This document shows positions 12,221 through 22,089 of a stretch of DNA of 51,814 nt, piece by piece. Below the pieces are notes generated by a model. It was not told where the DNA came from, made no database searches, and worked only from the letters and a program-made list of their open reading frames with translations. The DNA is taken from IMG/VR virus record IMGVR_UViG_3300021255_000032. One strand, written 5' to 3'. The position numbers and the translations under genes were made by a program. Numbering within the stretch: the stretch's first letter is position 1; each line of letters opens with the position of its first letter. This DNA comes from a virus.

Positions 12221-13210
12221 ATGGAAAGTTTCATCATTGACAAAGACAGAAAAGCAGTAGAGCACGTTTCCGGCGGCAAAATGACGCTGATTTATGACAA
12301 CGCGGGTAACCCGTCTGTCATGTGTGTGATTCCGAAATTCCGCATGGAAGATGTTGACGCGAACCTTGGAACGGGCGTACACCCGGCTTTCCTGGTGCAC
12401 GGAAAAGAAGTGCCGGAAATTTTTATCTCGAAGTATCAGAACGTTATCGCAAACGGCAGAGCCTACTCGCTTGCGCATGAAGACCCGAAAGCCTACATCA
12501 CTTTTGACCAGTCGAAAGCAGCTTGCGACGCAAAAGGCCGGGGCTGGCACATTATGACTCGCGCAGAGTGGGCAGCTATTGCTTTGTGGTGCAAAGCTAA
12601 CGGCTTTATGCCTCGCGGCAACACGGCCTCCGGCAGAGCTTATGACGCCCTGCATGAATGCGGCGTTATGGGCGGCGACGCTCGCACCCTCACGGGCAGC
12701 GGTCCCGTGACGTGGAACCACGACAACACCCCGTACGGCATTAGCGACATGTGCGGTAACATCTGGGAATGGAACGACGGCATGAAGATTATTGATGGCC
12801 ATATCTACATTCACGGCGAAGATGGTGTAGCCATGAACAATTTCGACACCGCGAACATTGAAAACAATGTCAGCGGCTGGGTAAATACAAACGCTTTCTA
12901 CATGGGCGACGGTATGAAGATTGGCGCAGCTCGTGCCAACGCAAAGGGCTATGACGGCAACTTCAAAGACCTTGTAGCCAACAGCGGCTTTACGATTCCG
13001 AACACTCTTAAGCAGCTCGCGCTCGCTCCTACTACGGGCAACACGACTGACGACCATTTCTGGTGCAACACCGAAGGTGAGCGTATCCCGTTCTCGGGTG
13101 GCAATTGGAACCGCGGCTCGACTGCGGGCTTGTTCGTTTTGTCTTTGGACTACGTTCGTTCGCACTCGCACGGCGACATCGGTTTCCGCTCCGCTTATAT
13201 TGCGATTTGA
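12221..13210 (+). CDS. DGR target (variable) protein, FGE-sulfatase / C-type-lectin-fold receptor-binding candidate
   Basis: 329 aa. The VR occupies the last about 43 codons. FGE/CLec-like motifs are present (GWHIMTRAEWAAIALWC, CGNIWEWNDG, GGNWNxG...GFRSA). It is the last gene of the tail fibre module. Confidence 0.9.
   Translation: MESFIIDKDRKAVEHVSGGKMTLIYDNAGNPSVMCVIPKFRMEDVDANLGTGVHPAFLVHGKEVPEIFISKYQNVIANGRAYSLAHEDPKAYITFDQSKAACDAKGRGWHIMTRAEWAAIALWCKANGFMPRGNTASGRAYDALHECGVMGGDARTLTGSGPVTWNHDNTPYGISDMCGNIWEWNDGMKIIDGHIYIHGEDGVAMNNFDTANIENNVSGWVNTNAFYMGDGMKIGAARANAKGYDGNFKDLVANSGFTIPNTLKQLALAPTTGNTTDDHFWCNTEGERIPFSGGNWNRGSTAGLFVLSLDYVRSHSHGDIGFRSAYIAI
13082..13196 (+). repeat. DGR variable repeat (VR)
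   Basis: A 115-nt match to TR (offset 580 nt) with 12 mismatches, each at a TR adenine. It ends in the GC-rich GGTTTCCGCTCCGCTT (IMH-like). Confidence 0.95.
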
Positions 13211-13232
13211 CCCTTGATACTTGTGTTTTGCA

Positions 13233-13254
13233 GGGACGGGCGATAGCCCGTCCC
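13233..13254 (+). other. Hairpin downstream of VR (DGR retrohoming hairpin/cruciform candidate, possibly also a terminator)
   Basis: GGGACGGGC-GATA-GCCCGTCCC: a 9-bp GC-rich stem with a 4-nt loop, 22 nt after the target gene stop. The position matches the VR-proximal hairpin described for the Bordetella phage DGR. Confidence 0.6.
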
Positions 13255-13283
13255 CAGCTTTATAAATAAAACATTTTGAAAGG

Positions 13284-13628
13284 TTGAGAACAACGAACAA
13301 ACTAACCATAATTACAAAAACGAATGATTTACTAGACGAAATTTACGACGCAATAGCACAATATCCGAAGTCGGAAAAATTCGCATTGGGAGCAGACACC
13401 AAACAGACCGGATTAAACTTTTATAGGTTAATCATTACGGCGGCGAAGAAGTATTATAAGAAAACGACATTGAGGGACGCTGATGTAGAATTATTTGTAT
13501 TAAAGAATTTTATCCGTATGGGACATAACCGCAGATACATGAACACAAAACGCTACGAACGATTATCGCGGGCAATCGAAGAAGTAGGCAGAATGTTAGG
13601 CGGTTGGATTCAAACAACGGAAAAATAA
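13284..13628 (+). CDS. avd: DGR accessory variability determinant (Avd-like four-helix-bundle protein)
   Basis: 114 aa, basic, lying between VR and TR. Avd / 23S-rRNA-IVS-family style motif DEIYDAIAQYPKSEKFALGADTKQ. The start codon is uncertain (TTG 13284). Confidence 0.8.
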   Translation: MRTTNKLTIITKTNDLLDEIYDAIAQYPKSEKFALGADTKQTGLNFYRLIITAAKKYYKKTTLRDADVELFVLKNFIRMGHNRRYMNTKRYERLSRAIEEVGRMLGGWIQTTEK

Positions 13629-13661
13629 AAAATAAAAATATTATTGGGGAATAGCTATTTA

Positions 13662-13776
13662 CGTATCCCGTTATCGGGTGGCAATTGGAACAACGGCTCG
13701 AATGCGGGCTTGTTCGATTTGAATTTGAACAACGTTCGTTCGAACTCGAACGGCAACATCGGTTTCCGCTCCGCTT
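13662..13776 (+). repeat. DGR template repeat (TR)
   Basis: Non-coding copy of VR. In the VR frame it reads IPLSGGNWNNGSNAGLFDLNLNNVRSNSNGNIGFRSA with 10 AAY codons. By my count it has 24 adenines, 12 of them substituted in VR. Confidence 0.95.
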
Positions 13777-13979
13777 TACTTCACTCGTCAGAAGTTATAA
13801 CCTCATGGGGTTATATCCAGTACAGAAGTATTAAAGGAGTTATTCTCCATTATTGCAGGGGAAATATACTGCAATAAAAAAATAAAAACGGAACGATACA
13901 GTTAGTAGCTGACCGCGAAAAATGTATCGTTGTTTATGGTAGACAATATTTTAGTAACCCTAAAGGAAGTATTAAACAC
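13777..13979 (+). ncRNA. DGR RNA spacer between TR and RT (structured)
   Basis: No credible ORF. Two hairpins: 13796-13815 (7 bp) and AACGATACA/TGTATCGTT at 13892-13900 / 13923-13931 (9 bp). By analogy, the TR-RT spacer of characterised DGRs is part of the priming RNA. Confidence 0.5.
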
Positions 13980-15044
13980 ATGAAACGGATAAACCATATT
14001 TACAGTAAAATCTATGACTTTGAGAATTTATACGCGGCTTATATGGAAGCGCGGAAAGCGAAAAGGTATAGGCACGATGTTATGAGGTTCACAGCGAACC
14101 TCGAAGAAAATCTCATAGAGCTTCAAAACGAACTCATTTACAAGACTTACAAAGTAGGTCGGTACAATGAGTTTTTTGTTTATGACCCTAAGAAACGACT
14201 TATCATGTCCCTGCCTTTTCGGGACAGAGTTGTGCAATGGGCGATTTACCGCCAGATTAACCCGCTTTTCGATAAGCGATATATTTCAACCTCGTATGGT
14301 TGCAGAGTTGGCGGCGGCGCGCATAGAGCCGTGAAGAAGTTGAAGGAATACATCAGGGCGCAGCCGGGGACAGCTTACGTCCTAAAGATGGATATTAGCA
14401 AATATTTTTATCGCATAAACCATGATGTGCTGATGGGAACGCTTAGAGGCATGATAAAAGACGAAGATTTATTATGGCTTTTGGAAACCATTATACGCGG
14501 CGAACATGATTTTGGGATTGAGGTAGACGATTGGGATTATACAGGGCGACGGCTTTCTAATGTCGGTATGCCGATTGGAAATTTATCCTCACAGATGTTT
14601 GCTAATCTTTATCTTAATGCGGCAGACCATTTTGCCAAAGAAGTATTGAGATGTAAATATTATATCCGTTACATGGACGATATGGTTATCGTCGATACCG
14701 ATAAGAAACGATTGCGGGAAGTGTTGCGGGAAATGGACAGCTTTCTTGTCAATAAATTGGCGTTGAAGCTGAATAATAAAACCTGTATACGGACGGCAAC
14801 ACAGGGCGTTGACTTTTGCGGGTACAGAGTTTGGGGGACTCATATCCGTCTACGTAAAAAATCAGCGATAAAAATGAAACATAGGCTAAAACATCTGCAA
14901 AAAGAATTTTCCAAAGGGAGAATTAAAACGGACACGTTCAGAAATAGCCTAATGAGCTATATGGGAATGTTGGAGCATTGCGACTCCTATTCCTTAAAGA
15001 ACAAGATTTTTGATTCTATTGTTTTGACAAAAGGAGGAAGATAA
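13980..15044 (+). CDS. DGR reverse transcriptase
   Basis: 354 aa. Has the DGR-type motif PIGNLSSQMFANLYL and the catalytic YIRYMDDMVIV (YMDD). Immediately downstream of TR. Confidence 0.95.
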   Translation: MKRINHIYSKIYDFENLYAAYMEARKAKRYRHDVMRFTANLEENLIELQNELIYKTYKVGRYNEFFVYDPKKRLIMSLPFRDRVVQWAIYRQINPLFDKRYISTSYGCRVGGGAHRAVKKLKEYIRAQPGTAYVLKMDISKYFYRINHDVLMGTLRGMIKDEDLLWLLETIIRGEHDFGIEVDDWDYTGRRLSNVGMPIGNLSSQMFANLYLNAADHFAKEVLRCKYYIRYMDDMVIVDTDKKRLREVLREMDSFLVNKLALKLNNKTCIRTATQGVDFCGYRVWGTHIRLRKKSAIKMKHRLKHLQKEFSKGRIKTDTFRNSLMSYMGMLEHCDSYSLKNKIFDSIVLTKGGR

Positions 15045-15046
15045 TT

Positions 15047-15388
15047 ATGCTGAAAAAAATTCATTTCGCCGTTTTGGCGGTTATGTTGATGATAGGGCTT
15101 TTTACTACCCCGGCTTTTTGCTCGGCGGGAGGAATAGACAGGGACAAGCAAATGCACATCGGAGCAAGTGCGGCGGTCGAAGTCTTTATGGCTCATAATA
15201 AGCCGTTTAATAGCTGGGCACCTTGGCAGCGTTCTTTGTTTAATGTGGTTGTTATCGGCGGGGCGAAAGAACTATATGACAGCAGACACCCGGATAGACA
15301 TTCAGCGGATTGGGGCGATATTGGAGCAGACGCAATAGGGGCATTTGGAGCTGAAGGTATGATTTGGCTTGTTCATACAACGTGGTAA
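15047..15388 (+). CDS. Secreted/membrane protein, function unknown
   Basis: N-terminal signal-like MLKKIHFAVLAVMLMIGLFTTPAFCSAGG. 113 aa, between the RT and the holin. Confidence 0.5.
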   Translation: MLKKIHFAVLAVMLMIGLFTTPAFCSAGGIDRDKQMHIGASAAVEVFMAHNKPFNSWAPWQRSLFNVVVIGGAKELYDSRHPDRHSADWGDIGADAIGAFGAEGMIWLVHTTW

Positions 15389-15462
15389 TAGGAGAGGTTG
15401 AAAATATGGCAGAAAGAGCACCGCCGTGGAGGGCGGTTTTAGAAAAGTCAGGAGGAACGAAC

Positions 15463-15948
15463 ATGAACGAAGGGACAAAGGATATGAATAATGCCATTTT
15501 GGAGTTTTTGAAGTCACTTATTCCTGTACGGTTAGAGGCCGTATGGGGGGTGGTTGTGGGCGTGGTAGGAACATTTGCAAGTTACATTTGCGGAATGTGG
15601 AACAGTGCCATAGAAACACTTGTCATTCTCATGGTGCTTGACTATTTGAGCGGTATGCTGGCGGCCTGTATCAATCCCGGCTTAGCTCTTAATTCACAAA
15701 AAGGATTCAAAGGGATTGCCAGGAAACTATTTATTTTCATACTGGTAACAGTCGCCTATTTTATTGATTCACGTCTGGGCACCCACGAGATTTGTACGAT
15801 GACCACGTTCTTCTATATTGCCAATGAAGGTTTGTCGATTATAGAAAACGCAGCTAAAGCAGGTGTTCCAATCCCTAACGCGTTAAAAGATACGCTTGAG
15901 CAATTATCTCACGAGAAGAAAGCGCGAGAGAAAACGGAGGGAAAATGA
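15463..15948 (+). CDS. Holin (TcdE / phage_holin_4-like)
   Basis: Motifs LMVLDYLSGML...KGFKGIARKL...ANEGLSIIENAAKAGVPIPNAL. ATG 15463 follows GGAGGA 15451-15456 and is preferred over the track start 15364, which overlaps the upstream gene. Confidence 0.8.
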   Translation: MNEGTKDMNNAILEFLKSLIPVRLEAVWGVVVGVVGTFASYICGMWNSAIETLVILMVLDYLSGMLAACINPGLALNSQKGFKGIARKLFIFILVTVAYFIDSRLGTHEICTMTTFFYIANEGLSIIENAAKAGVPIPNALKDTLEQLSHEKKAREKTEGK

Positions 15949-16115
15949 ATGGTTTAGCATGGACAGAACTGTACGAAAAATTTTACGCGTTTGCCTACGT
16001 AGCAAGGCGGCAAGGTTTTTACCCGAAACAGATTCAAGAAATGGAATACTCATTATTTGAGATGTGTCCGTTTCCGAGAAATTACCGCCCCGACAAGCGA
16101 TGGAAAAGAAAATAA
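15945..16115 (+). CDS. Small hypothetical protein (56 aa, below the ORF-track cutoff)
   Basis: ATGA overlap with the holin stop. Product MNGLAWTELYEKFYAFAYVARRQGFYPKQIQEMEYSLFEMCPFPRNYRPDKRWKRK*. Confidence 0.35.
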   Translation: MNGLAWTELYEKFYAFAYVARRQGFYPKQIQEMEYSLFEMCPFPRNYRPDKRWKRK

Positions 16116-16171
16116 TAGAACCTCGCAAAGAAACAAGAGAACCTCGCAGAAACGAAAGGAGAAGAAGAAAA

Positions 16172-16900
16172 ATGAGTGTTGATATTAAAGAGACTGACCT
16201 CAGTTTTAACAGCTTATCCGAAAGAAGCTACACGGACATGGTCGTTATTCACCACACAGGCGGCAACGATATCGACGCCTCCGCCGAAGAAATCCACGGA
16301 TGGCATTTGAACAACGGCTGGGCGGGCATCGGTTACCACTATGTTATCCGAAAGGACGGCACTATTGAGCGCGGCAGACCGGAGTGGGCAATCGGCAGCC
16401 ACGCATACGGCGAAAACTCGCATACCATCGGTATTCACCTTTCCGGGGATTTTGAGAACGCAGAGCCGACGGCAGAGCAGCTTGACCGTTGCGGCGCACT
16501 TGTTTCAGACATCTGCGACCGCTACGGGATTCCCATTGACCGCGACCATATCGTAGGTCATGGAGAGCTTATGGCAACCTCTTGCCCCGGTACAAACCTG
16601 CAAGCCCTTCTTGACGATGGCACGATTACGGGGAAGGCCATCTTCTACTACAACCAGACGCACGGCATAGTAGACACCGCAGAGGCCGAAAACACCACCC
16701 CGGCAGAGCAGGACGGCGGCAAGCAGGGCGGCAGAGGCATGGAGCGATTCAATACCGTGGACGCTGTACCGGATTGGGCGAAACCGACGGTCGAAAAGAT
16801 GATTAGCAAAGGGCTGCTGCAGGGCAACGGCGAAAGCCTCGATCTATCCCTCGATATGCTCCGTACGTTTGTTATCAACGACCGGGCAGGACTTTATTGA
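16172..16900 (+). CDS. Endolysin: N-acetylmuramoyl-L-alanine amidase (Amidase_2/PGRP) with a C-terminal SLH-like domain
   Basis: Motifs VVIHHTGG...GWAGIGYHYVI...HTIGIHLSGDF...GHGELMATSCPG. The C-terminus FNTVDAVPDWAKPTVEKMISKGLLQGNG resembles an S-layer-homology motif. ATG 16172 is preferred over 16064. Confidence 0.9.
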   Translation: MSVDIKETDLSFNSLSERSYTDMVVIHHTGGNDIDASAEEIHGWHLNNGWAGIGYHYVIRKDGTIERGRPEWAIGSHAYGENSHTIGIHLSGDFENAEPTAEQLDRCGALVSDICDRYGIPIDRDHIVGHGELMATSCPGTNLQALLDDGTITGKAIFYYNQTHGIVDTAEAENTTPAEQDGGKQGGRGMERFNTVDAVPDWAKPTVEKMISKGLLQGNGESLDLSLDMLRTFVINDRAGLY

Positions 16901-17314: not shown

Positions 17315-17348
17315 GACAGGCAGGGATTTTCCTTGCCTGTCTTTTTTT
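17315..17348 (+). terminator. Rho-independent terminator ending the late/lysis operon
   Basis: An 11-bp stem GACAGGCAGGG/CCTTGCCTGTC with loop ATTTT, followed by a T7 run. Confidence 0.8.
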
Positions 17349-17411: not shown

Positions 17412-17440
17412 TTGACTTTTTATTTAGAATTGAGTATGAT
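17412..17440 (+). promoter_or_regulatory. Sigma-70-type promoter of the accessory island
   Basis: TTGACT (17412-17417), 17-nt spacer, TATGAT (17435-17440), inside a very AT-rich stretch. Confidence 0.6.
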
Positions 17441-17485
17441 TGAATCAAGATAAAGAGAGGCACGAAAGAGAAGGAGGCCAACACA

Positions 17486-17713
17486 ATGTGGAGCAAAGGA
17501 ATTTTAGAGATTGACGGCGTTAAGGTTGAGTACCAGGTCAAGCACTACGAAGAAGGTTCGACGTTCGGAATTGAAGAAGGGAAAATCTCAAAGCTATTCT
17601 GCTACGTCGGACGGGACGAAGTTATCAACTACGACAGAGGCGAATGGAGCAAGAAACCGAAAACGGCAGTCAGCCGGAAAGCATACAAAGCCCTTCTGGA
17701 AAGATTCAACTAA
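17486..17713 (+). CDS. Hypothetical protein
   Basis: 75 aa, GAAGGAGG RBS, first gene after the promoter. Confidence 0.6.
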   Translation: MWSKGILEIDGVKVEYQVKHYEEGSTFGIEEGKISKLFCYVGRDEVINYDRGEWSKKPKTAVSRKAYKALLERFN

Positions 17714-17770
17714 GCCGAAACCGCCGAAAGGCGGTCATAGCAGGACAGCAACCTGTTATCTGATGATGGC
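17714..17770 (+). ncRNA. Type II hammerhead ribozyme candidate (copy 1)
   Basis: GCC|GAA|A-CCGCC-GAAA-GGCGG-U|C^|AUAGCAGG-ACAGCAA-CCUGUUAU|CUGAUGA|U|GGC. All core nucleotides are present: CUGAUGA, GAA, the A15.1-U16.1 pair and a GUC cleavage triplet. Predicted cleavage is after C17736. Confidence 0.65.
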
Positions 17771-17793
17771 AAGCTAAAAGGAGGATACAGACC

Positions 17794-18250: not shown

Positions 18251-18484
18251 ATGGAATTTGTACAGATTGAAGCCGCAAGACAGGGTTACAGCCCCTCGGA
18301 CATTGCAGGAAAGACCTTGACCGTGGCAGAGCTTAGGGAACTTCTCGACCAATACCCGGACGATATGCCCGTGATTTTATCCCACGACAACGGCTACACC
18401 TACGGCGGCATTGGTTACAACGATGTTACCGACGGATATTATGCAGACGAAAACGAAGATAGCTACGGCGAAGGGGAAGAATGA
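18251..18484 (+). CDS. Hypothetical acidic protein
   Basis: 77 aa from ATG 18251 (AAGGAGGA RBS), preferred over the track start 18212. Acidic C-terminal tail YYADENEDSYGEGEE. Confidence 0.6.
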   Translation: MEFVQIEAARQGYSPSDIAGKTLTVAELRELLDQYPDDMPVILSHDNGYTYGGIGYNDVTDGYYADENEDSYGEGEE

Positions 18485-18544
18485 GCCGAAACCTCCCACA
18501 CGGGAGGTCGCCGGGGGATTGACCACCCCCGGCCTGATGATGGC
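18485..18544 (+). ncRNA. Type II hammerhead ribozyme candidate (copy 2)
   Basis: GCC|GAA|A-CCUCCC-ACAC-GGGAGG-U|C^|GCCGGGGG-AUUGACCA-CCCCCGGC|CUGAUGA|U|GGC. Same architecture and identical core as copy 1, with entirely different but still complementary stems I and III. Predicted cleavage is after C18509. Confidence 0.65.
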
Positions 18545-18571
18545 AGGTTGAGAGAAAAGGAGGATTCAAAT

Positions 18572-19369
18572 ATGAACACTTATGAAGAAAAACAAGCCCG
18601 TAGAAGGGAATACTACGAGGCCAAAGCGGCAGCAGCTAGGGCAGAAAGCCACGAGCAGTACAACACCTTCAAAAAGATGGCTGATGTTATCCCGATGGGG
18701 CAGCCGATTCTCGTTGGACACCACAGCGAAAAGAGCGATAGAGCCTATCGCGGCAGAATGACGGGGCACATGGACAAAAGTATCGAGCTCAGCAAGAAGG
18801 CCGAATACTATCAGCAGAAGGCCGAAAGCGTAGGGCAGGGTGGCATAAGCGGGTACGACCCGGACGCGGTTACGAAGTTGAAGGAGAAGCTGGACAAGCT
18901 GAAGGAGCAGCAGGAACGCATGAAGGCGGCAAACAAAGCCCTCCGGCTTAAGGACACCGAAAAGGGCAACGCAAGACTCCGTGAGCAGGGTTATTCTGAA
19001 AAGCAGATTGAAGAACTCCGTACGCCGGATTGTTTCGGGTGCATTGGTTTCGCAAGCTACACCCTCACGAACAACAACGCGAGCATACACCGGATTGAAA
19101 AGCGCATAAAGCAATTGGAGGCAGCCAAAGAGCACGAAGGGGAGGAAAAGGAAACCGACCTTTACAGCTACCGCATAGAGGACGCGCGGGTACAATTCAC
19201 ATTTGACGGCAAGCCAGAGCCGTGCGTAAGGGACATTCTGAAAAGGCACGGATTCAAGTGGGCACCGTCCAGGGGCGCATGGGTAAGACAGGCGACCGCG
19301 AACGGCAGATACGCGGCAAAGAGCGTTATGCAGGAATTAGATGATTTGGAGGCGTTCGATAATGAGTGA
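18572..19369 (+). CDS. DUF3560-like protein
   Basis: GQPILVGHHSEKSDRAYRGRM motif and a C-terminal KRHGFKWAPSRGAWV module, as I recall for DUF3560 proteins of plasmids and phages. ATG 18572 after AAGGAGGA is preferred over TTG 18548. Confidence 0.5.
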   Translation: MNTYEEKQARRREYYEAKAAAARAESHEQYNTFKKMADVIPMGQPILVGHHSEKSDRAYRGRMTGHMDKSIELSKKAEYYQQKAESVGQGGISGYDPDAVTKLKEKLDKLKEQQERMKAANKALRLKDTEKGNARLREQGYSEKQIEELRTPDCFGCIGFASYTLTNNNASIHRIEKRIKQLEAAKEHEGEEKETDLYSYRIEDARVQFTFDGKPEPCVRDILKRHGFKWAPSRGAWVRQATANGRYAAKSVMQELDDLEAFDNE

Positions 19370-20432: not shown

Positions 20433-20458
20433 CCCTCCCGGATTTGGGAGGGCTTTTT
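20433..20458. terminator. Bidirectional rho-independent terminator between the accessory island (+) and the integrase (-)
   Basis: CCCTCCC-GGATTT-GGGAGGG, followed by CTTTTT on the + strand and by TTGTTTTA on the - strand. Confidence 0.75.
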
Positions 20459-20460
20459 CT

Positions 20461-21957
20461 TTACTTGAAAACGAAGTCGAAGTCGAGCAGGTACTTATGG
20501 CCATAGTTATAATCGCGCCGGATTACAGAAACCTTTTCGAGGATTTCAAGCACGACCCTACGCCTAGCCTCTAACGTTGGCGGGCAATTGCGAACCACCG
20601 CGACAATATCAGCCGGGGCATTTTGTTCTGCAGGGGCGGCAGATGTTTTCTCCGACTCGGCCAACTCATTCTGCAGCCGGGATTCCTCTGCCTTCAAGGC
20701 GGTCAGCTTTTCCGTAGCCTCGGACTGGCCTAGAAGAGATTGAGAAAACCACGCCATGACGGCTTGCCTTTCTGAATGGATCTTCTCTATTCGCTTGAGT
20801 ATCTTCTGCCGCTTGTTTTGGGCAGGGGCGGCAGATGTTTTTCCGTCAGCACGTTTTCCGATGTAGGCCGTCAAGGTTTCTTCATTGGTGCAGATTTGTT
20901 CCAGAGTTGACCAAAAGAGAGCGTCAGCGACAGGCAGCTCCATATAGCGGGAAGGGCATTTGCCGCCGTTACGCGGGGCAGATTCAGGACATTGATACCA
21001 TCGACGACCGCGCTTCCCGTCTGTGCAGATTCTTATGCGCGTACCACAATGACCGCAATAAGCAAGCCCCTGCAGCAGCCCTATGTCATTGTTTTTCTTC
21101 CATGTTTTGTAGGTACGTTTTTTAGATTTGATTTCGAGGGCTTTTTCATGTAGTTCAGCCGGGATAATTGCGGGGCAGGTCATTTCTATCCATTCTTCAC
21201 GCGGGCGGGGGATTTTCTTGTAGGATTTCGGTCCCGTCTTTTTGTGGTACTTTGTGTTGGCAAAGTAGCGACCTGTATAGTGGGGGCGGTGGATTATGTT
21301 ACGCACCGAACTGGCGCACCACTTCACGCCTGTGGGGGAGGGTATGCCCTGTTTGTTGAGCATATCGGCAATGACTTCACAGCCGCCGACCCTGTCCTCC
21401 ACGTACCATTGGTACACGCGCTTGACGATTTCAGCCTCGGCAGGATTCACGACATAGCAGCAGGTTTCCCGGTCGAAGTCGTAGCCATAGATGTGACTGT
21501 CATTTATTGCCTTCCCGGCGCGAAGTTTGGCACGCTTCCCGCGCATTGTTCGCTCCCTTATTTTGGCGCGTTCGTATTCAGCAAATACGCCTTTCATCTG
21601 ATAGGACATATTGCCCTCAGGGGTATTGTCGAACCGTTCGAGCACGAACACGGGACGGCAGCCAGCTTTCTCCAATTCCTCTGTCAAGATAAGCTGATGT
21701 ATCAATTTCCGCGCCATACGGTCAGCGTCGTGGAAAATTACAGCCTCGTACAGGCCGTCTTGGACAGCGTCGCGCAGATTGTCCAGGGCAGGACGTTCGA
21801 GGAAGCCGCCGGAATAGCCATCGTCGATGTATTCTTTCACGACAAAAGCACCCATCTCAGCAGCCTTTTTCCGGCAAGCCTCTATTTGCGTACCGATGGA
21901 ATAGCCGTGCTCGGCTTGCCATTCCGTAGATACGCGGGCATATATAGCAACGTTCAT
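20461..21957 (-). CDS. int: Large serine recombinase (integrase)
   Basis: Resolvase-type N-terminus MNVAIYARVSTEWQAEHGYSIGTQ, a recombinase domain, a Zn-ribbon (CGHCGTRI...C) and a C-terminal coiled coil. ATG 21957 is preferred over the track start 22059. Confidence 0.9.
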   Translation of the reverse strand: MNVAIYARVSTEWQAEHGYSIGTQIEACRKKAAEMGAFVVKEYIDDGYSGGFLERPALDNLRDAVQDGLYEAVIFHDADRMARKLIHQLILTEELEKAGCRPVFVLERFDNTPEGNMSYQMKGVFAEYERAKIRERTMRGKRAKLRAGKAINDSHIYGYDFDRETCCYVVNPAEAEIVKRVYQWYVEDRVGGCEVIADMLNKQGIPSPTGVKWCASSVRNIIHRPHYTGRYFANTKYHKKTGPKSYKKIPRPREEWIEMTCPAIIPAELHEKALEIKSKKRTYKTWKKNNDIGLLQGLAYCGHCGTRIRICTDGKRGRRWYQCPESAPRNGGKCPSRYMELPVADALFWSTLEQICTNEETLTAYIGKRADGKTSAAPAQNKRQKILKRIEKIHSERQAVMAWFSQSLLGQSEATEKLTALKAEESRLQNELAESEKTSAAPAEQNAPADIVAVVRNCPPTLEARRRVVLEILEKVSVIRRDYNYGHKYLLDFDFVFK

Positions 21958-22089
21958 GTGGTCAAAATTTCCCCTTTCATTTATGCAAAAAAATATTCCA
22001 TTGTTTGGATTGAAATTATTCCATTGCGCACAATGTAAAAACGCAAGGCGAAAAGTCAAGCAAACTGCAAAAATCGAAGAAAAGTAAAG

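Follow-up and report, generated by a model that had tools for sequence, protein, structure and literature searches.

A predicted type II hammerhead ribozyme in the intercistronic gap of a temperate phage accessory operon

The window (the whole 51,814-nt stretch of DNA analyzed here, IMG/VR virus record IMGVR_UViG_3300021255_000032) contains an accessory operon which runs from promoter to terminator and is placed between a lysis cassette with holin and amidase genes and a gene coding for a serine integrase. The temperate phage of this window also carries a DGR. The features of the operon and its surroundings are the following.

17315-17341: terminator called by the consensus scan
17412..17440, + strand: promoter-like site TTGACT-17-TATGAT, 10 of 12 matches, a consensus match only
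17486..17713, + strand: DUF7678 gene, 75 aa, first in the operon (PF24726, E = 1.7e-23), with copy 1 directly 3' of it
17713..17779, + strand: hammerhead type II copy 1 (Rfam 32.4 bits), predicted cleavage after C17736
17794..18237, + strand: 147-aa gene with no family, second in the operon, with a homologue in locus L004 (see below)
18251..18484, + strand: 77-aa gene of unknown function (phrog_3939), upstream neighbor of copy 2
18558..18564, + strand: RBS AGGAGGA of the DUF3560 gene, 6 nt past the pseudoknot tail of copy 2
18572..19369, + strand: DUF3560 protein gene, 265 aa (PF12083, E = 4.6e-39; phrog_6744)
20433..20452, + strand: terminator-like hairpin closing the operon, tail-to-tail and shared with the minus-strand integrase gene
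20461-22059, - strand: serine integrase gene, its 3' end about 10 nt from the operon terminator

The 87-nt gap between the 77-aa gene and the DUF3560 gene is accounted for by copy 2, the element studied here. Copies 1 and 2 are located on the same strand, 771 nt apart, within one promoter-to-terminator unit, and the 147-aa and 77-aa genes stand together between them. The parts of copy 2 are listed below.

18482-18484, + strand: TGA stop codon of the upstream gene, whose final A is the conserved A preceding the ribozyme
18484..18552, + strand: whole element including the 3' pseudoknot tail (RF02276 match, MFE fold)
18485..18487, + strand: stem II 5' strand GCC, partner GGC at 18542-18544
18488..18490, + strand: core G12 A13 A14 (GAA), by direct reading, invariant in alignment A3
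18491..18508, + strand: stem III hairpin A-CCUCCC-ACAC-GGGAGG-U, 7 bp, loop ACAC, from the fold
18509, + strand: C17 of the triplet GUC, predicted scissile bond C18509/G18510, from its position relative to the core
18510..18533, + strand: stem I hairpin GCCGGGGG-AUUGACCA-CCCCCGGC, 8 bp, GCCGGGGG and CCCCCGGC paired, loop AUUGACCA
18519..18524, + strand: pseudoknot 5' strand UUGACC in loop I, complementary to 18546-18551
18534..18540, + strand: core C3 U4 G5 A6 U7 G8 A9 (CUGAUGA), by direct reading, in agreement with the Rfam consensus
18541, + strand: additional U separating A9 from G10.1, inserted with respect to the Rfam consensus ('ug' insert in the alignment)
18542..18544, + strand: stem II 3' strand GGC, partner GCC at 18485-18487
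18545, + strand: linker A
18546..18551, + strand: pseudoknot 3' strand GGUUGA, tail past stem II, complementary to UUGACC

Stems I and III each end in a loop and stem II is open, both ends of the element lying in it, which is the type II topology. The core nucleotides C3 U4 G5 A6 N7 G8 A9 and G12 A13 A14 are all present, as are the A15.1-U16.1 pair (A18491-U18508) and a nucleotide other than G at position 17; C18509 is presumably C17 and the cleavage site, as we assume from the hammerhead numbering rule. The pseudoknot joining loop I to the tail 3' of stem II comprises 6 bp (U-A, U.G, G.U, A-U, C-G and C-G), two of which are G.U pairs. Such a pseudoknot is a feature of the majority of type II hammerheads, not an obligatory one (Perreault 2011, PMC3088659).

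In a search of the whole window on both strands, the Rfam model Hammerhead_II (RF02276, clan CL00010) matched 18484-18552 (+) over model positions 1-66 of 66 with 43.7 bits and E = 9.7e-6, the gathering score of the family being 37 bits. A family-specific covariance model gave 67.6 bits, with copy 2 itself included in the training set. The MFE and centroid folds of 18482-18556 are exactly the three-stem junction (-34.8 kcal/mol, z = -3.39), none of 200 shuffles being as stable, and the frame GCCGAAAC-N(8-30)-GTC-N(16-46)-CTGATGATGGC occurs twice in the window with 0.00 occurrences expected from 100 dinucleotide-preserving shuffles. In the MFE fold of a 251-nt context, computed with an energy model that cannot include the pseudoknot, hairpins I and III are kept and the weak stem II is lost to other pairings. 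The match, the fold of the element and the frame count agree with an earlier note on this DNA, which had described a hammerhead candidate at 18482-18551 with sequence and coordinates exact to the base: its core, its stems I (8 bp) and III (7 bp) and its open stem II are borne out by a covariance match above the Rfam threshold, its view that the motif is not due to chance is upheld by the frame count, the E-value and the shuffles, and its predicted cleavage position, after C18509 and upstream of the RBS of the DUF3560 gene, is the one expected from the sequence.

The whole-window search (51.8 kb), performed as an Rfam E-value scan and with the unfiltered family-specific covariance model, revealed hammerhead copies 1 and 2; no third hammerhead and no other ribozyme was found in the window by either method, the next best match having 13.5 bits. 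Copy 1 scores 32.4 bits, below the RF02276 gathering score of 37 (E = 0.0018 in a 10-kb search and 0.0092 in the whole window), although its core and stems are intact and its MFE fold is the junction. The shortfall is explained by an A/U-rich stem I and a pseudoknot of only 3 bp (AGC/GCU). Copy 1 thus appears to be built like a type II hammerhead and is predicted to act like one, while by score it falls outside formal Rfam membership. Within 17714-17770 it has the same AGCCGAAAC, GGUC and CUGAUGAUGGCA segments as copy 2, with stems that differ and are fully paired.

The difference between the two copies had been taken in the earlier note as covariation, but these are two family members compared with each other, not orthologues, and it is orthologous loci and the wider family that supply the proper evidence; covariation is indeed found in them. 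In a viral contig whose DUF3560 protein is 99% identical (L003), a type II hammerhead with 45.0 bits occupies the same position between stop codon and RBS, and the prophage of Selenomonas ruminantium S137 (L004/L005, 74% protein identity) has one with 45.4 bits at the same position, so the ribozyme is kept directly upstream of the same DUF3560 gene. The stem II change relative to L004 is compensatory (GCC/GGC to GUC/GAC), as is that of stem III in the orthologous loci (CCUCCC/GGGAGG to AGGGC/GCCUU), and the changes in stem I are compensatory as well. Homologous intergenic regions without stem complementarity or core nucleotides had been named in the note as grounds for rejection; those of L003 and L004/L005 keep both. 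The unpaired core is retained in the window, L003, L004 and the copies from Streptomyces phages described below, while the stems drift.

The Selenomonas prophage operon possesses only the second hammerhead with the same genes kept, and the [RBS-DUF7678-copy 1] cassette present in the window is absent from this otherwise collinear operon. No hammerhead was found within 2-3 kb of more distant DUF3560 or DUF7678 homologues, the loci checked being those of Dialister, a Burkholderiaceae MAG, a Bartonella MAG, Yersinia phage vB_YpM_39, a Methanofastidiosa virus, several gut phages and Erysipelothrix phage phi1605. These genes can therefore do without the ribozyme, and an obligatory link with DUF3560 or DUF7678 was rejected. 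Viral-contig scans with the two small upstream proteins, each taken singly, yielded no contig or just the near-identical one.

The exact frame GCCGAAAC..GUC..CUGAUGAUGGC was found in at least 116 distinct viral-contig copies. In a set of 57 family sequences, 78% of cells are paired compared to 59.6 ± 0.9% in shuffles, and the covariation score is 0.437 compared to 0.139 ± 0.009 in shuffles and 0.08-0.15 in slid registers; only stems I and III and the pseudoknot were free to vary here, since most sequences had been collected with a pattern fixing the core and stem II. The first five tested positions of stem III are 96-100% paired, with three or four Watson-Crick pair types at each of positions 2-4 (the closing C-G was set by the search pattern), and at the first five positions of stem I 96-99% are paired, A-U, U-A, G-C, C-G and G.U all being present. 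Compensatory change in the helices is thus seen in L003, in L004/L005 and in the 57-sequence set. In the stems G.U is common and A.C nearly absent, a sign that the + strand RNA is under selection.

Support for the pseudoknot comes from alignment-free tests: a loop I/tail helix of at least 4 bp is formed in 87 of 100 copies compared to 40.5 ± 3.5 with permuted tails, and the longest such helix has a mean of 4.84 compared to 3.61 ± 0.08. At least 15 different tail tetramers occur, each with a complementary loop tetramer. On a plain MAFFT alignment only 52% of pseudoknot cells are paired because the loop registers are misaligned, and a fixed-register count on a greedy stem parse, blurred because the stems are bulged, gives 60% compared to 41-45% in shifted registers. 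The six-pair UUGACC/GGUUGA interaction with its G-U wobbles, as proposed in the earlier note, is thereby supported by complementarity and family covariation. Family members start a median of 0 nt past the upstream stop codon, and the next start codon follows a median of 24 nt past stem II, as would suit a site of processing between cistrons. Downstream of 100 family copies the genes are heterogeneous, with each Pfam family present in at most 4 of the 100, and the retrieved viral-contig stretches mostly contain one copy each.

The family score, core, three helices, pseudoknot, compensatory change in orthologues and operon context were all computed here, and it is very probable that 18484-18552 encodes a type II hammerhead ribozyme, predicted to cleave itself, inside a polycistronic phage mRNA. 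The element is genuine. It is at the same time an ordinary find, since both this kind of element and its arrangement in prophages were already described in 2011.

The feature of copy 2 that departs from the Rfam consensus is U18541. At least 116 viral copies all have a U added after A9; this U is missing in the orthologue L004, whose stem II still has 3 bp, and copy a of the Streptomyces phage Salutena likewise carries one additional C after A9. In another type II hammerhead, activity can fall by orders of magnitude when insertions or additional pairs are placed around stem II and the pseudoknot (PMC3088659). The CChMVd(+) hammerhead has an extra A at the identical core position, between A9 and G10.1, and the trans-cleavage data of De la Pena and Flores 2001, as given in summary by PMC3705267, include a U in its place, with a rate 3-4 fold higher. 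By analogy with this tested viroid hammerhead, a U at the extra position should be compatible with high activity. CChMVd(+) differs from copy 2 in being a viroid hammerhead, one which the account of its tertiary structure in PMC2632901 gives as held by loop-loop contacts without a pseudoknot, and its role is the processing of replication intermediates.

The extra U is also what could speak for a hammerhead-shaped relic, catalytically dead or very slow, the hairpins of which would act as passive intercistronic structures (e.g., stabilizers or barriers to RNase III/RNase E). Some predicted hammerheads are inactive, and changes in stem II/pseudoknot geometry can cost orders of magnitude in rate (Perreault et al., PMC3088659); stem II of copy 2 has just 3 bp and is lost in the long-context MFE fold. 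A passive hairpin would have no use for the unpaired core, yet the window, L003, L004 and the Streptomyces phages have all kept it, pseudoknot covariation makes sense only for a docked, active fold, and U at the extra position accelerated the hammerhead for which PMC3705267 gives rates. We therefore regard a relic as improbable.

An active copy 2 would work as follows. During RNA synthesis the G+C-rich hairpins III and I would form, and the 3-bp stem II together with the 6-bp loop I/tail pseudoknot would dock stem I beside stem II, allowing the conserved core CUGAUGA/GAA to catalyze internal transesterification after C18509. The upstream product would terminate in hairpin III and a C bearing a 2',3'-cyclic phosphate, and the downstream product would have a 5'-OH directly on the 8-bp hairpin I (a flush 5' end), with the RBS and the DUF3560 gene behind it. 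When this 3' product is folded in silico, 18558-18559 are unpaired and 18560-18562 take part in a short weak helix, so the RBS (18558-18564) would be only partly single-stranded. With a copy 1 cut after C17736, three transcript pieces would result, carrying the DUF7678 gene, the 147-aa and 77-aa genes, and the DUF3560 gene plus distal small genes, each piece having hairpin-capped ends; these ends, it is proposed, would uncouple the stability and translation of each block from those of its neighbors. Cleavage in the cell, and differential stability or expression as the purpose of the ribozymes, are what we infer from this scheme. In Bacillus subtilis, RNase J1 attacks the 5'-OH product left by the glmS ribozyme, so cleavage could lower, not raise, downstream expression. 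The idea of an mRNA cut into three pieces, put forward in the earlier note, is plausible by analogy, being the same hypothesis that Perreault et al. 2011 offered for clustered prophage hammerheads (PMC3088659).

It would also be conceivable that the two ribozymes excise the 773-nt segment 17737-18509 and that the ends are ligated to give a circular or spliced RNA, either through the ribozyme reaction run backward or with an RtcB-type ligase. Ends with 5'-OH and 2',3'-cyclic phosphate are the right chemistry for RtcB, and the same-strand hammerhead pair does enclose a short block of genes (those of 147 and 77 aa). This possibility was raised by Perreault et al. for prophage clusters, but the circular or spliced products they sought were not found (PMC3088659). 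Moreover, the Selenomonas orthologous operon has the same genes with the second hammerhead only, so pairing of ribozymes is not required, and most of the viral-contig stretches retrieved have a single copy; excision is accordingly very improbable. A terminator/attenuator or a DNA-level repeat (e.g., a recombination site) with an incidental resemblance to a hammerhead is scarcely credible, since, despite the G+C-rich hairpins in an intergenic gap and the near-identical family copies between unrelated genes of different phages, the abundance of G.U and near absence of A.C in the stems indicate selection on + strand RNA, not DNA, and the covariance-model match takes in the unpaired core. A terminator or attenuator at copy 2 was rejected, as the scan calls only 17315-17341 and 20433-20452 and no U-run follows the hairpins.

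For the self-cleaving ribozyme that copy 2 very probably is, a wider role can be imagined from family-level evidence, not from copy 2 itself. Among 56 pairs of viral-contig copies chosen for having the variable parts of the ribozyme (stems, loops and tail) at least 90% identical, both flanking genes are homologous in 15, one flank only in 21 and neither in 20. The [RBS-DUF7678-copy 1] cassette, found in the window but missing from the Selenomonas operon, is a comparable case in the lineage of the window itself. Such broken synteny in near-identical pairs hints that type II hammerheads with the extra U, fused to a stop codon and followed by an RBS, might be portable intercistronic modules marking phage mosaic junctions, a suggestion we consider doubtful. 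If it were true, the ribozymes might have two roles, acting as short homologous joints for swapping small accessory genes and guaranteeing context-independent expression of any gene landing alongside. A literature search on phage mosaicism and hammerheads yielded nothing relevant by title or abstract.

Copy 2 adds one sequence-confirmed example to a class catalogued in Rfam and known from prophages since 2011. Its value for annotation is that the element is left unannotated in comparable GenBank phage records, e.g., those of Streptomyces phages, and a simple two-ribozyme operon of a temperate phage, with a relative in a cultivable host (Selenomonas ruminantium S137), would make a reasonable system for studying the role of clustered hammerheads.

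The closest known systems are the type II hammerheads with a loop I/tail pseudoknot which occur in clusters beside small prophage genes in the vicinity of integrases (Perreault et al. 2011, PMC3088659). For some of them cleavage was shown, in vitro and, in E. coli, in vivo, and the pseudoknot is needed for fast cleavage (PMC3088659). Copy 2 shares with them and with RF02276 the same permutation, core and pseudoknot between loop I and the 3' tail; it differs from the Rfam consensus in the extra U after A9, where the consensus has none, and in a stem II of 3 bp compared to about 2 bp. The setting is also alike, namely a prophage with several ribozymes near an integrase flanking variable genes or short blocks, and so is the proposed role in processing long phage transcripts: in the window two same-strand copies flank short gene blocks near the integrase gene and downstream of the holin/amidase genes. 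The genes flanking copy 2 (phrog_3939 and DUF3560) are not among the examples named in Perreault 2011.

Three type II hammerheads from phage-like regions of Desulfovibrio vulgaris (loc 1-3) were found by cyPhyRNA-seq in 2021 to cleave in vivo, and they do so during in vitro transcription as well (PMC8782182). Their neighbors are hypothetical and phage-like genes, and two of the three share a strand at a distance of about 300 nt; the host phylum and the neighbor genes are different, and the likeness is one of setting, not of compared sequence. A pseudoknot-containing hammerhead crystallized by Lilley and co-workers has its core stabilized by a 6-bp pseudoknot (PMC11300833), but there the pseudoknot replaces helix II, and an extra stem-loop and a pistol-like topology are present, whereas copy 2 has helix II and a loop I/tail pseudoknot.

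When the 3-kb region was compared by BLASTN with 50,697 phage records, only Streptomyces phages Salutena, Jevington and Marav were hit (81-83% identity over 69 nt), and their hammerheads, unannotated in GenBank, score 51.8, 42.7 and 37.0 bits with Rfam. As in the window, they are located in intergenic gaps of co-directional small-gene arrays, two to three per 2.5 kb. These are, however, phages of Actinobacteria, the arrays include dNMP kinase and thymidylate synthase genes and are not next to an integrase, and the flanking genes are unrelated to those described here. A literature search for DUF3560 together with hammerheads found no papers.

Finally, RiboJ insulators, which Lou et al. are said to have described in 2012, reportedly employ a hammerhead just upstream of an RBS which removes the upstream RNA context and leaves a hairpin at the new 5' end, making downstream expression independent of the preceding sequence. 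They are said to be engineered from the sTRSV hammerhead and placed after promoters, not between natural cistrons. With this likeness in function only, the two-ribozyme operon would be much like a natural ribozyme insulator.

The element under study (copy 2) lies on the plus strand between the gene for a 77-aa protein and the DUF3560 gene, and had been described in the earlier note as a hammerhead ribozyme candidate; on re-reading, the sequence and coordinates of that description (18482-18551) matched exactly. Its parts, as read from the sequence, are listed below.

Layout of copy 2 (core residues in hammerhead numbering)
18482-18484, +, stop codon TGA, end of the upstream gene
18485-18487, +, GCC, 5' strand of stem II
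18488-18490, +, GAA (G12 A13 A14), core
18491-18508, +, 7-bp hairpin A-CCUCCC-ACAC-GGGAGG-U, stem III, including the A15.1-U16.1 pair
18509, +, C17 of the GUC triplet, predicted cut directly after it
18510-18533, +, 8-bp hairpin GCCGGGGG-AUUGACCA-CCCCCGGC, stem I (G1.1 = 18510)
18534-18540, +, CUGAUGA (C3-A9), core
18541, +, one extra U between A9 and G10.1
18542-18544, +, GGC, 3' strand of stem II
18545, +, single A between stem II and GGUUGA
18546-18551, +, GGUUGA, 3' strand of the pseudoknot (partner UUGACC, 18519-18524)

The Rfam scan of the whole window, performed on both strands with all 4227 families at curated thresholds, returned two matches above threshold, one of which is a full-length Hammerhead_II (RF02276) at 18484-18552 with 43.7 bits against the gathering score of 37 (E = 9.7e-6). 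All the features of type II membership that can be tested in a sequence are present, including the full core, and the three-helix junction is the exact thermodynamic fold of 75 nt for both copy 2 and copy 1, the other candidate of the same operon (z = -3.4 and -3.1). The window has two occurrences of the composite frame GCCGAAAC-N-GTC-N-CTGATGATGGC, versus 0.00 expected from dinucleotide-preserving shuffles. Copy 1 (17714-17770) is the second-best hammerhead match and possesses every structural feature while failing the Rfam score threshold (32.4 bits, E = 0.0018 in a 10-kb search); as the earlier note had it, the two copies have their unpaired segments in common, with stems that are different yet fully paired. 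No third hammerhead or other ribozyme was found in the window with the Rfam scan and a family-specific covariance model. Judged by its sequence, copy 2 is a real type II hammerhead with predicted catalysis. The GUC triplet at its cleavage site is of the favourable kind, and since C3-A9, GAA, A15.1-U16.1, C17 and G1.1 at 18510 are all in place, the cut is predicted after C18509, the residue proposed before.

The sole departure from the Rfam consensus is U18541, inserted between A9 and G10.1 next to a stem II of 3 bp. As stem II of the Selenomonas orthologue is also 3 bp long and lacks this U, the comparison supports reading U18541 as an insertion rather than a sign of a shifted helix. The hammerhead of chrysanthemum chlorotic mottle viroid also has an extra residue at this position, and a U at that site made cleavage 3-4 fold faster (PMC3705267). 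One hammerhead of Streptomyces phage Salutena (2506-2572) has CUGACGA followed by an extra C after A9.

Related loci were found via the downstream DUF3560 protein. The same stop-codon-to-RBS gap holds a type II hammerhead both in L003, a near-identical viral contig (99% protein identity; 45.0 bits), and in the Selenomonas ruminantium S137 prophage (L005) with its matching IMG/VR contig L004 (74% identity; 45.4 bits). Between copy 2 and L004 all three helices differ with pairing kept in each: stem II changes from GCC/GGC to GUC/GAC, stem III from CCUCCC/GGGAGG to AGGGC/GCCUU, and stem I from GCCGGGGG/CCCCCGGC to UGCCGGG/CCCGGUA; neither the core nor the pseudoknot nucleus GACC/GGUU has changed. 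L003 differs in loop I by a C-to-U substitution that leaves the pseudoknot with U.G in place of one C-G pair. The comparison therefore tests the earlier note's point that related intergenic regions losing stem complementarity or core nucleotides would speak against the ribozyme: L003 and L004 keep both. The ribozyme is absent at the more distant DUF3560 or DUF7678 homologues examined.

The search of viral genomes for the hammerhead frame, also proposed earlier, yielded at least 120 IMG/VR contigs with at least 116 distinct copies, of which the informative parts are stems I and III and the pseudoknot only, the collecting pattern having fixed the core and stem II. In stems I and III, pairing across the first five positions amounts to 96-100% among the matches listed, with three or four kinds of Watson-Crick pair at most positions; G.U pairs are common with nearly no A.C pairs, which is a signature of selection on RNA of the plus strand. 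The covariation score of a 57-sequence alignment is 0.437, compared to 0.139 +/- 0.009 for shuffles and at most 0.15 for slid registers. The loop I/tail pairing, suggested before as six pairs with G-U wobbles, indeed allows four Watson-Crick and two G.U pairs in copy 2. A loop/tail helix of at least 4 bp can be formed by 87 of 100 copies among the matches listed versus 40.5 +/- 3.5 with tails permuted among sequences, and complementary tetramer pairs are many (GACC/GGUC, GGUC/GACC, GCCC/GGGC, CGCC/GGCG, UGCC/GGCA), so that, at the level of sequence comparison, the predicted pseudoknot is covarying in the family.

The 5' edge of the hammerhead is fused to the upstream stop codon in the window (18484, 17713) and family-wide, the gap being a median of 0 nt (10th-90th percentile -1 to 4) over the at least 116 viral copies. 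Usually the final base of TAA or TGA supplies the conserved A that precedes GCC, or else a TAG stop overlaps stem II by the latter's first G. Among the matches listed, a median of 24 nt separates stem II from the next start codon, the genes on either side are small (medians about 82-85 aa) and the downstream genes are heterogeneous. With the edge at the stop codon, a terminating ribosome would cover stem II and part of stem III, and ribozyme folding and upstream-gene translation may hinder one another.

The surroundings of the two copies are as follows.

Genome features around the operon
13082-13196, variable repeat, at the 3' end of the plus-strand ORF 12221-13210
13662-13776, template repeat, 90% identical to the variable repeat
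13774-13933, RT-14 RNA (Rfam RF02921), 84 bits
13980-15044, reverse transcriptase (Pfam RVT_1, phrog_1423)
15364-15948, holin
16064-16900, amidase
17315-17341, terminator-like hairpin before the operon
17412-17440, strong promoter-like site, 10/12 consensus matches
20433-20452, terminator-like hairpin after the operon, common tail-to-tail with the serine integrase on the other strand

The operon runs DUF7678, copy 1, 147-aa gene, 77-aa gene, copy 2, DUF3560 and a few small genes; bounded by these promoter-like and terminator-like sites, it is a self-contained accessory unit at that end of the prophage which carries the lysis genes and the integrase. The window, which holds tail genes and a diversity-generating retroelement, looks like a complete temperate phage genome. 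The retroelement is complete (13082-15044), and 12/12 differences between its repeats are at template adenines. Tail genes, retroelement, lysis genes, accessory operon, minus-strand integrase, early genes and, at 38-50 kb, large ORFs presumed to be packaging and head genes follow each other, an order which suggests a whole, circularly permuted temperate phage genome with a Selenomonas-like (Negativicutes) host.

The S137 prophage operon shares with the window the promoter-leader (attgaatcaagataaag) and the 147-aa, 77-aa and DUF3560 genes, and lacks the cassette consisting of RBS, DUF7678 gene and copy 1 (window 17450-17793 vs L004 2170-2232), the right edge of the indel being no more than about 10 nt from the tail of copy 1. 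Near-identical type II hammerheads are also found between unrelated genes in the viral-contig loci L009-L128 (e.g. L020 9685-9744 vs L023 and L055). In 56 pairs among the matches listed, non-independent and many from one metagenome (3300045988), the variable parts are at least 90% identical, with both flanking ORFs homologous in 15, one in 21 and neither in 20. Together with the indel, this hints that ribozymes of the family sit at mosaic junctions or help to form them, or that they travel with gene cassettes; since the pairs are non-independent and many share one metagenome, it is to be taken as a lead rather than a result. Two identical or nearly identical hammerheads lie 0.7-1.7 kb apart on the same strand of some viral contigs (L069 685-742 and 2408-2465; L092 4694-4751 and 5396-5455); as direct repeats they are long enough for the genes between them to be deleted or duplicated.

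With the anatomy of copy 2 read directly, established hammerhead chemistry leads us to infer the following course. Hairpins III and I would fold first, co-transcriptionally, the 3-bp stem II and the pseudoknot would then dock the helices, and cleavage after C18509 would follow. In the type II permutation both products would keep a terminal hairpin: hairpin III and a C bearing a 2',3'-cyclic phosphate would end the upstream RNA, and the downstream RNA would start directly at the 8-bp G+C-rich hairpin I, with a 5'-OH. Ready separation would be expected because the weak stem II is the sole link between them. The predicted fold of the 3' product retains hairpin I, and the first bases of the RBS (18558-18564) are unpaired in it, with 18560-18562 taking part in a weak, short helix. 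In this host, cleavage may either raise or lower the stability of the downstream mRNA: RNase J1 degrades the 5'-OH product of the glmS ribozyme in Bacillus, and RNases that depend on the 5' end should be impeded by the flush hairpin. Together with a copy 1 cut after C17736, three RNAs would arise from one transcript, which functionally resembles engineered ribozyme insulators.

In Streptomyces phages Salutena, Jevington and Marav, two to three type II hammerheads (37-51.8 bits; L001 595-656, 2506-2572; L002 68-133, 604-665, 2506-2572) occupy intergenic gaps of a small-gene array, none of them annotated in GenBank. Type II hammerheads as a class, the loop I/3'-tail pseudoknot with its importance for speed, and the frequent location near integrases in prophages were described by Perreault et al. 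2011 (PMC3088659), as were arrangements of several ribozymes around one gene or a short block of genes whose identity varies; of such clusters, three were reported there to cleave in vitro and one to cleave in vivo in E. coli. Desulfovibrio vulgaris has three type II hammerheads in phage-like regions, two of them ~300 nt apart, and all three cleave in vivo (PMC8782182). Copy 2 adds to this already described class and is not a new kind of element, and the three-RNA processing envisaged for the window operon is the transcript-processing role put forward for hammerhead clusters of prophages by Perreault et al. 2011 (PMC3088659).
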